This document shows positions 20 to 4,533 of a DNA stretch of 4,711 nucleotides, piece by piece. This stretch comes from a virus (taxonomy: Duplodnaviria > Heunggongvirae > Uroviricota > Caudoviricetes). The stretch lies in the IMG/VR virus record IMGVR_UViG_2547132270_000004, positions 1-4,711 of that record; one strand, written 5' to 3'. The stretch's first letter is position 1. Each line of letters starts with the position of its first letter. The position numbers and the translations under genes are program-made. Under the pieces are notes generated by a model that saw nothing but the letters and a program-made list of their open reading frames with translations, was not told where the DNA came from and ran no database searches.

Positions 20-61
20 AAAAAGGGCGGCAGAGCAGTCACGGAGTAAAACTGATACCGC
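20..61 (-). terminator. Rho-independent terminator forming the 3' end of DicF
   Basis: On the minus strand GGCGG (61-57) pairs with CCGCC (29-25) around an imperfect extended stem, followed directly by a TTTTT run (24-20). Confidence 0.55.
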
Positions 62-77
62 CAAACGCCACCAGAAA
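25..77 (-). ncRNA. dicF: DicF small regulatory RNA (ftsZ-targeting sRNA of the dic division-inhibition operon)
   Basis: Minus strand reads TTTCTGGTGGCGTTTGGCGGTATCAGTTTTACTCCGTGACTGCTCTGCCGCCC followed by TTTTT. This is 53 nt and matches my recollection of E. coli K-12 DicF at all but one position (G for A at the 10th nt). It lies at the distal end of the minus-strand operon downstream of the DicA-like repressor, as in Qin. Identity is from memory, not a search. Confidence 0.8.
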
Positions 78-1273: not shown

Positions 1274-1426
1274 TCAGTCAGAGTTTCTTGCTAACCAGCG
1301 ATGCGCGCCAGCTTCGGTTTTAAACGTTTTACTTTTGGTATACGTCATCGCGGTGAACGTGCCGTCCTGGTTGGGAAACACGTCGTACACCAGAGATTCG
1401 TTGTTGCCAAGATCGATAGTATCCAT
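1274..1426 (-). CDS. ydfA: Small protein (50 aa), YdfA-like (DUF1391-type) directly downstream of the dicA-like repressor
   Basis: The track ORF 1274..1519 has no RBS at its first ATG. The internal ATG at 1424-1426 is preceded by GGGGAAATGAGG (SD GAGG, 5-nt spacer). Size (50 aa) and position match ydfA (51 aa) of Qin and ydaF of Rac. The family assignment rests on synteny and size, not on verified sequence identity. Confidence 0.6.
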   Translation of the reverse strand: MDTIDLGNNESLVYDVFPNQDGTFTAMTYTKSKTFKTEAGAHRWLARNSD

Positions 1427-1503
1427 GCTGACCTCATTTCCCCTTAACGCCGGGGTAGCGGAACTGTTTGCTGAGAACACCGTGCGGTGTCTTGATGAAT
1501 GAT

Positions 1504-1555
1504 AATTTAGTTTTCTCATGTTAATTGGTCAAGTATTTTTGATGAGAAAACTCAA
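1504..1555 (-). promoter_or_regulatory. Putative sigma70 promoter of the early-left (dicB-type) operon with two flanking operator-like sites
   Basis: Minus strand: -35 TTGACC (1532-1527), 17-nt spacer, -10 TAAATT (1509-1504). Operator-like TGAGAAAACTCA at 1543-1554 sits just upstream of the -35. An 11/12 copy TGAGAAAACTAA (minus strand, 1518-1507) overlaps the spacer and -10. Confidence 0.45.
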
Positions 1556-1616: not shown

Positions 1617-2024
1617 TTATTGATGTTTGTTACGTTTGCGAGCTTCTAGTAGCTCGGTGAATAGGCGATTAAAATTCTCAACGCGGGCACGGAGTTCGCT
1701 GATTTGTGCTTGCTGCTCTGATTTTGGAAGTGCGCGATACAATCGCAACATCTCCAACTCATCTTCCGATAAGTCTAAGGCGCTGTTGAGTGCAACTGGT
1801 GGATCTGGTGTTTTATCCTCGTCACCAAACAGTATCCAAGTTGGTGAACATTGCAATACCTCAGCCAGGCGATGCAAATTTTGCCCACGCGGGGCTGTAT
1901 GGTCGCTTTCCCATAGTGAAATTGATGAGCCAGATACGCCAGCAGCTTTGCTTAAATCGTTTTGACTTAAACCAACCTGTTTGCGTCTTTCTCTAATTCG
2001 TTGACCTAAAGTTTTCTCGTTCAT
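1617..2024 (-). CDS. dicA: DicA-like HTH (XRE/Cro-C1 family) prophage repressor, 135 aa
   Basis: N-terminal HTH (QRIRERRKQVGLSQNDLSKAAGVSGSSISLWES) and the motif LQCSPTWILFGDEDK, which I associate with DicA/RacR-family repressors. Start chosen at the ATG at 2022-2024 (MNEKTLGQ...), giving 135 aa as in K-12 DicA. The track start at 2075 would add 17 residues and leave no room for the divergent promoter. Confidence 0.85.
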   Translation of the reverse strand: MNEKTLGQRIRERRKQVGLSQNDLSKAAGVSGSSISLWESDHTAPRGQNLHRLAEVLQCSPTWILFGDEDKTPDPPVALNSALDLSEDELEMLRLYRALPKSEQQAQISELRARVENFNRLFTELLEARKRNKHQ

Positions 2025-2045
2025 ATTTAGATATCTTAATAACCC

Positions 2046-2088
2046 TTGACTTGAGATTCCTTGAGTGATTACCATTGAGAAAACTCAA
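2046..2088 (+). promoter_or_regulatory. Putative promoter of the cro-like gene with an overlapping inverted-repeat operator
   Basis: -35 TTGACT (2046-2051), 18-nt spacer, -10 TACCAT (2070-2075). The 14-bp inverted repeat TTGAG-AAAA-CTCAA (2075-2088) overlaps the -10 and the predicted +1. Extra TTGAG half-sites occur at 2051-2055 and 2061-2065. SD GGAGGGG (2093-2099) precedes the ATG at 2102. Confidence 0.45.
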
Positions 2089-2101
2089 TTTTGGAGGGGC
2101 G

Positions 2102-2329
2102 ATGTTTAAATCAGACGTAATTAATTTTTATGGGACGAAAGCCAAAGTAGCGAAAGCTGCTGGTGTTGATCCATCTGCTGTTTCTCAATGGGGGGCACTG
2201 GTTCCTGAAGGTCGCGCGATGCGCCTGCAAGAGGCATCCGGCGGGGAACTTCAGTACGACCCCAAAGTTTATGACGAATATCGTAAGGCAAAGCGGGCGG
2301 GGCGGCTGAACAATGAAAATCACCCCTGA
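2102..2329 (+). CDS. dicC: Cro-like HTH regulator (DicC/YdaS family), 75 aa
   Basis: Divergent from the repressor gene. ATG at 2102 follows a strong SD GGAGGGG; the track start at 2075 is a TTG lying inside the operator. HTH-like segment GTKAKVAKAAGVDPSAVSQW. Size matches DicC (76 aa). Confidence 0.8.
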   Translation: MFKSDVINFYGTKAKVAKAAGVDPSAVSQWGALVPEGRAMRLQEASGGELQYDPKVYDEYRKAKRAGRLNNENHP

Positions 2330-2834
2330 ACAGGTTTGTGAGGCTCTGGATGCCTGGGTATGCCGACCAGGAATGACACAGGAGCAGGCGACGATATTAA
2401 TCACGGAAGCATTCTGGGCTCTGAAAGAACGCCCGAACATCGATGTTCAACGCGTCACGTTTGATGATGGCGCGGTTGATCAACGGGCGCTGGGCGTCAA
2501 CCGGGTGAAGATATTCGAACGCTGGAAAGCTATTGATACCAGGGATAAGCGGGAAAAATTCACGGCGCTGATTCCGGCAATTATGGAGGCTATCCGGATA
2601 AGTGATTTCAGGTTGTATCGTGAAATTACTGACGGAAAAAGCATTACATACATGATCGCCGGGTTAAACAAAGAATATGGCGACGTGGTGGAGTCAGGTC
2701 TGCTTTTTGCAGATCCGGCTGTTGTGGATCGTGAAACCGACGAACTTATAGAAAAAGCCATTGCTTTCAAGCGTGCGTATCGTCAGCAATATCAACAAAA
2801 AGCCGGATGGAATTATGAGTCTTCTGTTTGCTGA
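2313..2834 (+). CDS. cII-position regulatory protein (173 aa), possibly YdaT-like CII functional equivalent
   Basis: ORF overlaps the cro-like gene by 17 nt (2313-2329) and sits where lambdoid phages carry cII. It shows no resemblance to lambda CII itself. The YdaT-family assignment is by synteny and vague recollection only. Confidence 0.75.
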   Translation: MKITPEQVCEALDAWVCRPGMTQEQATILITEAFWALKERPNIDVQRVTFDDGAVDQRALGVNRVKIFERWKAIDTRDKREKFTALIPAIMEAIRISDFRLYREITDGKSITYMIAGLNKEYGDVVESGLLFADPAVVDRETDELIEKAIAFKRAYRQQYQQKAGWNYESSVC

Positions 2835-3780
2835 ACGCCCACTGGTTATTAACACGCAGCTGGCGATGAAAATTGGCCTGAATGAAGCCATTGTACTGCA
2901 GCAGCTGCATTACTGGTTGAGAGATACTAATTCCGGCATGGAATGTAACGGGGTTCGCTGGATTTATAACACAACAGAACAATGGCTGGAACAGTTCCCG
3001 TTCTGGTCAGAGTCAACGTTAAAACGCGCATTTGCAAGTCTGAAAACGCTGGGGCTTTTGCGTTGCGAAAAGCTCAACAAATCAAAGCGTGACATGACTA
3101 ATTTTTACACGATTAATTACGAGAGTGAGCTTTTAGATGGTGGCAAAGTGAGCGAATCCATCAGGTCAAAATGCGCCGCTCCATCAGGTCAAAATGACAC
3201 GATGGAAGAGGTCAAAATGGCACGCTCCATTGGTTCAAAACGACCCAATGTCATCGGGTCAAAATGGCCTGATGATCTTACAGAGAATACAACAGAGAAT
3301 ACAACAGAGAATAAAAACACTTCTCGTCCGGAAGCTTCGCAACCGGACCCGCAGACGGCTGAACAGGATTTTTTAATCCGACACCCTGATGCGGTTGTGT
3401 TCAGTGCGAAAAAACGCCAGTGGGGAAGTCAGGAAGATTTGGCGTGCGCACAGTGGATCTGGGGACGAATCGTGAGTCTTTACGAGCAGGCGGCCAGCGA
3501 TGATGGCGAGATCACGAGACCGAAAGAACCCAACTGGACAGCATGGGCCAATGACGTGCGCACAATGCGGATGCTGGATGGCAGAACTCACAGACAAATT
3601 TGCGAAATGTTTGGGCGGGTACAGCGGGATCCATTCTGGGTAAAAAACATCATGAGTCCGTCAAAGCTCCGCGAAAAATGGGACGAACTGGTCATCCGCC
3701 TGGGGCGTTCATCTGTACAGCGTTGTGTGAATCATATTTCTGAACCGGACACCGAAATTCCGCCGGGGTTCAGGGGGTAA
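2815..3780 (+). CDS. Phage replication initiator / replisome organizer (lambda O-like), 321 aa, with internal iterons
   Basis: ATG at 2815 is chosen over the track's TTG at 2761; it overlaps the upstream gene's stop by 20 nt. The N-terminal domain has the look of a replisome-organizer DNA-binding domain. The central low-complexity linker is encoded by the iteron array and tandem repeats. It lies immediately upstream of the DnaC-like loader. Confidence 0.85.
   Translation: MSLLFAERPLVINTQLAMKIGLNEAIVLQQLHYWLRDTNSGMECNGVRWIYNTTEQWLEQFPFWSESTLKRAFASLKTLGLLRCEKLNKSKRDMTNFYTINYESELLDGGKVSESIRSKCAAPSGQNDTMEEVKMARSIGSKRPNVIGSKWPDDLTENTTENTTENKNTSRPEASQPDPQTAEQDFLIRHPDAVVFSAKKRQWGSQEDLACAQWIWGRIVSLYEQAASDDGEITRPKEPNWTAWANDVRTMRMLDGRTHRQICEMFGRVQRDPFWVKNIMSPSKLREKWDELVIRLGRSSVQRCVNHISEPDTEIPPGFRG
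3157..3266. repeat. Iteron array (five direct repeats, about 23-bp phasing): putative phage origin of replication inside the initiator gene
   Basis: Core GGTCAAAATG occurs at 3164-3173, 3187-3196, 3210-3219 and 3257-3266, with a variant GGTTCAAAACG at 3232-3242. Extended consensus is about TCCATCAGGTCAAAATG. The arrangement is analogous to ori-lambda within gene O. Confidence 0.6.
3280..3315. repeat. 12-bp tandem repeat ACAGAGAATACA, 2.9 copies, A-rich, encoding TENTTENTTEN
   Basis: Two perfect copies (3280-3291, 3292-3303) and an 11/12 third copy (3304-3315), immediately downstream of the iterons. Confidence 0.7.
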
Positions 3781-3786
3781 CGAACC

Positions 3787-4533
3787 ATGAAAAATATTGC
3801 GACAGGCGGCGTTCTGGAACGTATCCGCAGACTGACCCCGCCACATGTAACCGCCCCATTCAGAACGGTAGCGGAGTGGCGCGAGTGGCAGCTTGCTGAA
3901 GGCCAGAAGCGTAGCGAGGAGATCAACCGCCTGAATCGCCAGTTGCGGGTGGAAAAAATTCTGAATCGCTCAGGCATCCAGCCGTTGCACCGTAAATGCT
4001 CGTTTGCGAATTACCATGTACAGAACGACGGCCAGCGATACGCGTTAAGTCAGGCGAAATCCATCGCTGATGAACTGATGGCCGGATGCACAAATTTCGC
4101 GTTCAGCGGAAAACCTGGTACCGGAAAAAACCATCTGGCGGCGGCTATCGGAAATCGCCTGCTGAAAGACGGCCAGACAGTGATAGTGGTTACTGTGGCT
4201 GATGTTATGAGTGCCCTGCACGCCAGCTATGACGACGGGCAGTCAGGCGAAAAATTTTTGCGGGAACTGTGCGAAGTGGATCTGCTGGTTCTTGATGAAA
4301 TTGGCATTCAGCGTGAGACGAAAAACGAGCAGGTGGTGCTGCATCAGATTGTTGATCGCCGGACAGCATCGATGCGCAGTATGGGGATGCTGACAAACCT
4401 GAACTATGAGGCCATGAAAACGTTGCTCGGCGAGAGGATTATGGATCGCATGACCATGAACGGTGGGCGCTGGGTGACTTTTAACTGGGAAAGCTGGCGC
4501 CAGAATGTCGTCCAGCCAGGAATCACGAAGTAA
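3787..4533 (+). CDS. dnaC: DnaC-family AAA+ replicative helicase loader (prophage DnaC paralog), 248 aa
   Basis: Walker [18 protein letters not shown] and Walker [10 protein letters not shown]. Collinear similarity to E. coli DnaC along the whole length (MKN..., [33 protein letters not shown]). RBS GGGGG at 3772-3776. Confidence 0.95.

Follow-up and report, generated by a model that had tools for sequence, protein, structure and literature searches.

The switch most closely related to the locus studied here is dicA-dicC-dicBp of the cryptic Qin prophage of E. coli K-12, described by Bejar et al., as cited in PMC10448788. DicA represses dicBp, and the antirepressor Rem relieves this repression (PMC10448788). 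Its operator Oc is a 20-bp inverted repeat that overlaps the -10 element of dicC (Yun et al. 2012; PMC3441716). An in vivo repression assay showed that DicA binds Oc (TTGTTAGTCATAACTAACAA) and that one A-to-C substitution eliminates the binding, and cloning of the region on multicopy plasmids led to selection of Oc point mutations (PMC3441716). The same study reported that dicC is up 700-fold when DicA falls, that 5'RACE places the dicC start such that the -10 adenine lies exactly at -11, that a 122-bp dicA-dicC fragment suffices for DicA-dependent transcription of dicA, and that the predicted operators Om and Oa do not bind DicA alone (PMC3441716). Its authors called the dicA promoter “not obvious” (PMC3441716), and Reg-Seq found no RNAP site for dicA in the mutagenised window of K-12. 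ChIP-seq peaks of DicC flank dicA on both sides and contain a palindromic motif (PMC11430063). Homologues of dicA, dicC, dicB, dicF and rem are also carried by mEp460_ev081, a functional temperate phage (PMC10448788).

The DNA analyzed here, referred to as the window, is the whole stretch of 4,711 nucleotides, and its map is based on an ORF list, Pfam, Rfam and a RefSeq locus that is 97.8% identical. Judged by its sequence, the window carries the immunity region of a lambdoid prophage, with a switch of the Qin dicA/dicC (P22 c2/cro-like) type. On the minus strand, the gene at 1617-2024 encodes a DicA-like or P22 C2-like HTH_3 repressor of 135 aa (Pfam HTH_3, 1.2e-16; RefSeq CDS of 408 nt). It is divergent from a Cro/DicC-like gene of the P22_Cro family on the plus strand at 2102-2329 (75 aa; Pfam P22_Cro, 3.6e-17; RefSeq CDS of 228 nt), which has a Shine-Dalgarno sequence, GGAGG, at 2093-2097. 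The arrangement is that of a Qin-type module: an HTH repressor of about 135 aa without a peptidase domain and a divergent P22_Cro protein lie about 80 bp apart (here 77), a leftward operon contains ydfA (DUF1391) and dicF/dicB, and the palindrome that directly follows the cro-like -10 recurs downstream of the repressor gene, at the leftward (dicBp) promoter. The repressor has the five-helix HTH_3 N-terminal domain of the P22 C2/434 type (Pfam HTH_3; PDB 1adr), and no C-terminal LexA-like (S24) autocleavage domain was found in the 135-aa protein, in which Pfam matched only HTH families.

The leftward operon begins with the ydfA-like DUF1391 gene (1274-1426, minus strand; Pfam 2e-27; RefSeq CDS of 153 nt), and an ORF with no family match (624-1262 or 1274, minus strand) and a DicF sRNA gene (25-76, minus strand; Rfam RF00039, 76.4 bits against a gathering score of 48) follow. 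The near-identical RefSeq locus has the 408-nt repressor CDS and the 77-bp gap, and dicB is annotated further downstream. On the rightward side, the cro-like gene is followed on the plus strand by genes for a YdaT-like protein (2313-2834), a replication-initiator-like protein with iterons (about 2815-3780) and a DnaC/IstB-like ATPase (3787-4533). At least 80% of the 1.1-kb region is held by 787 of 5426 complete E. coli genomes (about 15%).

Comparison with K-12 Qin delimits the part of the window that has diverged. Nucleotide identity is 85-100% in most 40-column windows at about 1300-1504 and 2210-2369, versus 30-65% in all 40-column windows of 1505-2209 but one (0.82 at 1825-1864). This divergent block is the immunity cassette, comprising the leftward operators, the repressor gene, the intergenic region and the N-terminal half of Cro. 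The immunity specificity of K-12 Qin, which would appear as the same operator and the same recognition helices, was not found in it. The combination of a different operator with different helices indicates a hetero-immune allele rather than the Qin specificity.

The cassette contains three strong copies of an inverted repeat. The initial annotation had described TTGAGAAAACTCAA at 2075-2088, a 14-bp TTGAG-AAAA-CTCAA, as a repeat of a motif at 1543-1554 in the same orientation, and our analysis bore this out: the 12-nt core TGAGAAAACTCA occurs exactly at 2076-2087 and at 1543-1554, both on the plus strand. The direct repeat reaches 17 nt with 16/17 identity, and none of 200 dinucleotide-preserving shuffles gave exact copies of the core. 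With A2074 and T2089 added, the rightward copy becomes a perfect 16-bp palindrome, ATTGAG-AAAA-CTCAAT. A third copy, TGAGAAAACTAA, which the initial annotation had not listed, lies on the minus strand at 1507-1518. The three copies score 21.4-22.4 against the position weight matrix. We predict that the core TGAG-AAAA-CTCA at 2076-2087 is the main rightward operator, equivalent to Oc, on the evidence of the exact repeat, a 13-nt invariant run, class specificity and the position of Oc in K-12. The copies at 1543-1554 and 1507-1518, both conserved in same-class loci, are predicted to be the distal and the proximal leftward operator, respectively.

Three further sequence matches were rejected. A matrix match at 997-1008 (TGAGCAAACTGA) lies within coding sequence and scores 10.6 versus 22.4, and it was taken as a chance occurrence. 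An 11-nt perfect inverted repeat pairs 2072-2082, the left half of the operator, with 2181-2191, the “VSQW” codons of Cro; we treated it as a coincidence, since other loci use synonymous codons there and show no nucleotide-level conservation. The TTGAG at 2061-2065 was considered as an extra half-site and discarded, as it reads TTGCG in most same-class loci. The TTGAG at 2051-2055 was retained as part of a possible middle operator, its TGAG at 2052-2055 being invariant. A literature search with the exact 12-mer returned only matches to unrelated human and fish primers, and the operator sequence was not found in the literature searched.

The main operator directly follows a conserved TTGACT-18-TAnnAT promoter. 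A promoter scan placed this PR-like promoter of the cro/dicC-like gene on the plus strand at 2046-2075, with the -35 element TTGACT at 2046-2051, an 18-nt spacer and the -10 element TACCAT at 2070-2075. CTTGAC is invariant, and positions T1, A2 and T6 of the -10 are kept in all loci. From the scan positions, the motif begins at the last base of the -10 (2075). When the -11A rule, derived from 5'RACE of K-12 dicC, is applied with A2071 as -11, the cro-like transcript is predicted to start at about 2082, in the centre of the palindrome. The motif thus overlaps both the -10 and the predicted +1, in agreement with the initial annotation. Similarity to the leftward promoter had drawn attention to another possible cro promoter, TTGAGT(2061)-18-TCAATT(2085-2090). 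This candidate was rejected because it has no adenine at -11 and would cut the Shine-Dalgarno sequence, and because TAnnAT is conserved at 2070-2075.

On the leftward side, the promoter scan identified a dicBp/PL-like promoter on the minus strand at 1504-1532 (TTGACC at 1532-1527, a 17-nt spacer and TAAATT at 1509-1504), a layout kept in all loci. The copy at 1507-1518 overlaps its spacer and -10, and the copy at 1543-1554 lies just upstream of its -35. The ydfA-like gene and DicF are located downstream on the minus strand, and the position of DicF at 25-76 indicates that this promoter heads a dicBF-type operon. Two apparent start codons prove to be created by the operator sequence itself: the TTG at 2075, which would start a cro-like protein with MRKLN..., is spurious, and the lengthening of the ydfA-like ORF to 1519, which also gives MRKLN..., is an artefact made by an operator copy.

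We compared the window with 23 related loci, namely K-12 Qin, the near-identical E. coli locus, 12 loci from a species-representative scan, 8 from exact-protein look-ups and phage mEp460_ev081; nine look-ups were made, one of which (P0065) gave no match. Fourteen loci, including the window, were aligned as the same class on the basis of the repressor helix-3 sequence SxSSISLWE; their repressors share 68-100% identity. The loci span E. coli, Buttiauxella, Salmonella, Scandinavium, Citrobacter koseri, Kluyvera, Enterobacter and Yokenella (about eight genera), and the addition of phage mEp460_ev081 gave 15 fetched same-class loci in the motif count. Across the 14 aligned control regions, the longest invariant run between the two genes is TTGAGAAAACTCA (2075-2087; 13 nt), while the Shine-Dalgarno region, the inner -10 positions and the base after CTCA vary. 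In place of the 14 bp given in the initial annotation, the conserved unit is only TTGAGAAAACTCA, followed by A, G or T. The first T of this unit belongs to the cro-like -10. Information content computed over 36 sites, which include one wrongly picked site (the distal site of L017), gave the consensus TGAG-AAAA-CT(C/A)A with almost no information outside it.

The motif follows the recognition helices. All 15 same-class loci carried the pattern TGAGAAAACTMA, as opposed to none of the 10 loci from other classes, a contrast that overstates the number of independent observations, given the common descent of the same-class loci. In 11 of the 15 it occurs three times, in the same places and orientations, and the other four keep one or two exact copies plus near-matches. 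Loci of other classes have a different palindrome at the same spot, after a TTGACT/TAnnnT promoter, and repeat it at their leftward promoter; examples are TTGTTAGTTATGACTAACAA (K-12), TTGTTAAATAAACTCAACAA (Citrobacter braakii) and TTGTTAGGAAAATCTAACAA (Rosenbergiella). The Cro recognition helix tracks the operator class, being DPSAVSQW here, D/ERSAVSQW in a second class and RLASLYSW in K-12. All 15 loci with the motif pair the repressor helix SxSSISLWE with the Cro helix DPSAVSQW, and none of the 10 with other helices carries it. Three comparative lines of evidence favour the earlier proposal of one operator motif both here and at 1543-1554: the motif does not vary between genera, it changes together with the recognition helices, and its position is homologous to that of the DicA site Oc. 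It is very likely that the prophage repressor shuts off the adjacent cro-like gene through this inverted repeat. The AAAA centre is asymmetric yet strongly conserved, which a simple symmetric-dimer model leaves unexplained.

Two readings of the repeat do without a DNA-binding protein. As RNA, the repeat might form a hairpin at the 5' end of the cro-like mRNA that affects stability or translation. The palindrome can indeed fold into a short stem-loop, and the minimum free energy of 2070-2104 is -5.3 kcal/mol; however, this corresponds to a z-score of only -0.99, and 32 of 200 shuffled sequences fold equally well. Moreover, the predicted +1 at about 2082 lies within the palindrome, of which the transcript would thus contain just the 3' half; the copy at 1543-1554 is upstream of the leftward -35 and hence absent from the leftward transcript; and it is the sequence itself, not pairing alone, that is invariant. 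We consider a role as RNA extremely unlikely. The three copies could instead reflect shared ancestry, with PL and PR derived by duplication from one sequence of promoter DNA and with no operator function. The proximal leftward and the rightward copies do occur in similar contexts, TTGACC-...-TGAGAAAACTAAATT and TTGAGT...TGAGAAAACTCAATT. Against this, the distal copy is inverted and outside the promoter, the flanks diverge while 12-13 nt are invariant across genera, the motif switches as a block with the HTH class, and the homologous K-12 site is a proven DicA site (PMC3441716). Duplication without function thus appears very improbable, and we retain the operator reading.

The remaining alternatives concern the repressor gene. 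The ORF list extends it to 2075 (1617..2075, minus strand; 152 aa), and the internal ATG at 2022-2024 gives 135 aa and leaves a 77-bp gap, 2025-2101, up to the cro-like ATG at 2102. The 152-aa form, as the real repressor or as a second isoform, has an open frame in its favour, and several homologues that were called automatically at 150-153 aa seem to share its 17-residue extension. This apparent conservation stems from the DNA beneath it, in which promoter and operator sequences are conserved. The extension is broken within the same class, in Buttiauxella (L005; ATA for ATG), Salmonella (L015; in-frame TAA), Enterobacter (L017; ATA and TGA) and C. koseri (L018; 2-nt deletion), and in K-12 and five more loci the frame runs into a stop 2-4 codons from the ATG. 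Its variable columns are spread evenly over the codon positions (5/6/7), versus 42/23/77 in the first 80 codons of the gene. Furthermore, the long form has no Shine-Dalgarno sequence, and its transcript would need to begin inside the cro leader. Most of the 120 repressor homologues listed are 132-136 aa long, RefSeq gives the short form, and residues 1-72 of P22 C2 (1adr) align to residues 1-72 of the 135-aa form, residue 1 to residue 1. The long form is thus scarcely credible, and the initial annotation was right to regard it as an artefact, with the start at 2022-2024 and a 77-bp control region. It was also right that the ORF reaches 2075, but this ORF does not run straight through the operator: the ATG at 2073-2075 shares only T2075 with the motif. 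The stop-free frame goes three codons beyond that ATG, to the TGA at 2085-2087, and the extended ORF crosses the whole cro-like promoter (-35, spacer and -10). The 17 codons at 2025-2075 (minus strand), which give the peptide stretch MVITQGISSQGLLRYLN peculiar to the 152-aa reading, are a spurious, non-coding extension that contains the divergent promoters and operators. A further suggestion of the initial annotation, that the repressor promoter lies in the cro-like leader or coding region, would give an mRNA with a long leader through the operator. The scan found no minus-strand sigma-70 consensus promoter within 2025-2101, and the “not obvious” dicA promoter of Yun et al. (PMC3441716) and the absence of an RNAP site for dicA in the Reg-Seq window point the same way. 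In opposition, the scan found no minus-strand promoter anywhere in 2025-2200, the cro coding sequence drifts synonymously as usual, and the 122-bp intergenic fragment of K-12 is enough for DicA-dependent dicA transcription (PMC3441716). In addition, a TAnnAT element, TA(A/G)(G/C/A)AT, stands within the 77 bp and at the corresponding position of every one of the 24 loci, 6-9 nt before the repressor start codon, and none of them has a Shine-Dalgarno sequence, which fits a leaderless mRNA. We therefore did not adopt the upstream location, which seems unlikely.

Instead, a weak PRM-like promoter within the 77 bp, giving an almost leaderless mRNA, probably drives the repressor gene. Its candidate -10, TAAGAT (2038->2033, minus strand), is 8 nt upstream of the ATG, with no Shine-Dalgarno sequence, and ATCTTAA at 2033-2039, which reads TTAAGAT on the minus strand, is invariant in the 14 loci. 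By the -11A rule, the repressor transcript is predicted to start at about 2026, with a leader of 0-3 nt. The cI mRNA that lambda makes from PRM is leaderless. The candidate promoter has no recognisable -35, the place being occupied by AGGAAT (2061->2056). The lack of a good -35 fits an activator-dependent promoter, as reported for K-12 dicA (PMC3441716). Operator centres would lie at about -55, -31 and -6 from the predicted repressor start, which does not match the geometry of lambda PRM. In the latter, OR2 is at -42. Since the candidate promoter is arranged back-to-back over the cro-like promoter, repressor at the main operator could activate it by removing polymerase competition.

Two weaker elements may belong to the same control region. 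A candidate operator of the Oa/OR3-like kind, TTAG-ATAT-CTTA (TTAGATATCTTA), at 2027-2038, overlaps the candidate repressor -10; it scores 9.9, ranks fifth in the window and reads TGAG-xxAT-CTTA in two loci (L018 and L019). We take it to resemble the P22-type half-site TTAAGAT. The spacer element TGAG(A/T)TTCCTTG at 2052-2063 is conserved, with invariant runs at 2052-2055 and 2057-2063. It may serve as a weak, Om-like middle operator, as the -35 region for repressor transcription, or as both. From its centre, the distance is 24 bp to the centre of the Oc-equivalent and 25 bp to that of the Oa-like site, a spacing that recalls OR3 and OR2. Both elements are rated as possible operators only, because Oa and Om of K-12 failed to bind DicA alone.

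The observed sequence anatomy, conservation, co-variation and broken extension are consistent with a switch in which the 135-aa repressor, starting at 2022-2024, acts on TGAG-AAAA-CTCA operators and is made from its own PRM-like promoter, with the binding proteins, the transcription starts and the activation mechanism as predicted elements; we give this model a probability of roughly 0.85. A dimer of the HTH repressor would bind the main operator at 2076-2087. Because this operator immediately follows the -10 and covers the predicted +1, bound repressor would exclude RNA polymerase, and the cro-like, ydaT-like and replication genes would be silent. The same repressor would silence the ydfA...dicF (dicBF-type) operon through 1543-1554 and 1507-1518. 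As its recognition helix changes along with the operator class, the Cro-like protein probably uses the same sites. The repressor promoter would fire only when repressor on the main operator blocks the cro-like promoter and/or activates directly. The class may also be a minimal variant of the lambdoid switch, with one strong cro-side operator and a strictly conserved A4 centre that is oriented along the direction of transcription at the two promoter-proximal sites. Its near-leaderless repressor promoter would be turned on purely by polymerase eviction from the overlapping, back-to-back cro promoter, with no contact of the CI-sigma kind; the A-tract would be read indirectly through DNA shape, giving repressor and Cro different affinities at otherwise identical half-sites. 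We regard this variant as rather doubtful.

Our analysis corrects the annotation of a repressor gene present in about 15% of complete E. coli genomes, which should be read as 135 aa and not 152 aa, and removes two spurious MRKLN starts created by operator sequence. It also supplies a testable operator consensus, TGAG-WWWW-CTMA, for an immunity group found in prophages of several enterobacterial genera and in the viable gut phage mEp460_ev081. This group controls an operon of the dicF/dicB cell-division-inhibitor type. The consensus would permit the prediction of superinfection immunity and of possible host targets. The cassette is shared with phages mEp460_ev081 (LR597641.1) and HannyBb (PP925841.1), at 90.6% nucleotide identity over 1480-2330; both are complete phage genomes, whereas a prophage may be the source of the window. 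Phage mEp460_ev081 has each of the three operator copies, and its repressor is annotated at 408 nt. The operators are unannotated in both phages, and no description of them was found in the literature searched.

The locus resembles the P22 immunity region (C2, Cro and the OR/OL operators; PDB 1adr, 2r1j, 3jxb and 1rzs) in its proteins. Residues 1-72 of the repressor N-terminal domain align to C2 (E 2e-15; PDB 1adr), and residues 1-58 of the Cro-like protein align to P22 Cro (E 1.3e-11; PDB 1rzs). The P22 operator consensus consists of the half-sites TTAAGAT and ATCTTAA, with a 4-bp centre that is not contacted. The geometry is the same here (TTGAGAA and AACTCAA), with G in the half-site where P22 has A, and alignment shows the differences N32G, V33S, A34S and Q37L from C2 in the recognition helix. 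On the PR side, only one strong operator is seen here, unlike in P22. The 135-aa repressor lacks a LexA-like C-terminal cleavage domain, whereas P22 C2 is 216 aa long (PMC10448788). The locus shares with OR/PRM-PR of lambda the divergent repressor and cro genes and, as predicted, operators overlapping both promoters. A probably leaderless repressor mRNA and repressor-dependent self-transcription, the latter shown for K-12 DicA (PMC3441716), would be further points in common. It differs in that the repressor has no sequence homology to CI, the spacing of the operators from the candidate repressor promoter is different, and induction, in K-12, is by the antirepressor Rem and not by RecA cleavage (PMC10448788).

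The closest correspondence is with K-12 Qin, which has the same gene order (ydfA <- dicA, dicC ->, with DicF downstream), a repressor of 135 aa, the -35 element TTGACT, a palindrome directly after the cro-like -10 and two more copies around the leftward -35 and -10; the repressor promoter is “not obvious” in both. The repressor is 56% identical to DicA, with the C-terminal QCSPTWILFGDEDK...NFN.LF.ELL conserved, and the Cro-like protein has 75 aa versus 76 aa. In contrast, the operator is a 12-16 bp TGAG-AAAA-CTCA instead of the 20-bp TTGTTAGT-N4-ACTAACAA of Qin, and the helices differ in both the repressor (SGSSISLWE versus SHVSVSQWE in K-12) and Cro (DPSAVSQW versus RLASLYSW). The palindrome centre is 2 bp nearer the -10 than in K-12, and the promoter spacer is 18 nt versus 17 nt. 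The locus adds a hetero-immune member to this known type and conceptually goes no further than the Qin and P22 paradigm.

The region at 1505-2209 is an immunity cassette, swapped as one unit. When the window was compared with the Qin locus of K-12, identity was mostly 30–65% within this region and 85–100% outside it, and the mosaic boundaries at its edges were sharp. The right-hand junction falls within the cro-like gene, immediately past the recognition-helix codons.

The AAAA centre of the operator (2080-2083, 1547-1550 and 1511-1514) is asymmetric and near-invariant in all three copies and in the homologues in the other loci compared (L002-L024). Its orientation is fixed, running along transcription at both promoter-proximal sites and reversed at the distal one of the two leftward sites. 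Neither the conservation nor the fixed orientation of AAAA is accounted for by a symmetric-dimer model. Two listed ORFs, 1274..1519 (minus strand) and 2075..2329 (plus strand), open with MRKLN because an operator copy provides (A/T)TGAGAAAACT. Neither 1519 nor 2075 is a true start; the genes begin at 1426 and 2102, respectively.

A perfect 11-nt inverted repeat was found between CCATTGAGAAA (2072-2082) and TTTCTCAATGG (2181-2191), the second arm of which encodes VSQW of the Cro recognition helix. This repeat is probably a coincidence, since other loci of the class, which share the repressor and Cro recognition helices and the operator, have synonymous codons at this position.

A DicF sRNA gene (25-76, minus strand) lies at the distal end of the leftward operon; it matched Rfam RF00039 with 76.4 bits, where the gathering score is 48. 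Because this gene sits in the leftward operon, the putative operator pair at 1507-1554 is predicted from the sequence to control a dicF-type cell-division inhibitor. The leader of the ydfA-like gene (approximately 1440-1500, minus strand), located 3' of the leftward promoter, is also conserved and contains a short palindrome that reads ACACCGCACGGTGT in E. coli and AATCAC...GTGATT in other genera and is followed by GTTCCGCTACCC..GGG. This element is kept across operator classes, and an Rfam search of the leader returned no match. It may act as RNA, for instance as a signal for antitermination, processing or stability.

The ATG of the YdaT-like gene, at 2313, lies 17 nt ahead of the cro-like stop codon (2327-2329), and the overlap (2313-2329) suggests translational coupling. 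Within the replication-initiator-like gene, approximately five copies of a 23-nt repeat with the core TCAGGTCAAAATG (3144-3266, plus strand) are followed on their 3' side by 2.8 exact copies of ACAGAGAATACA (3280-3313, plus strand). Together, these repeats look like an iteron-type origin inside the initiator gene; the lambda O gene likewise has an embedded origin.
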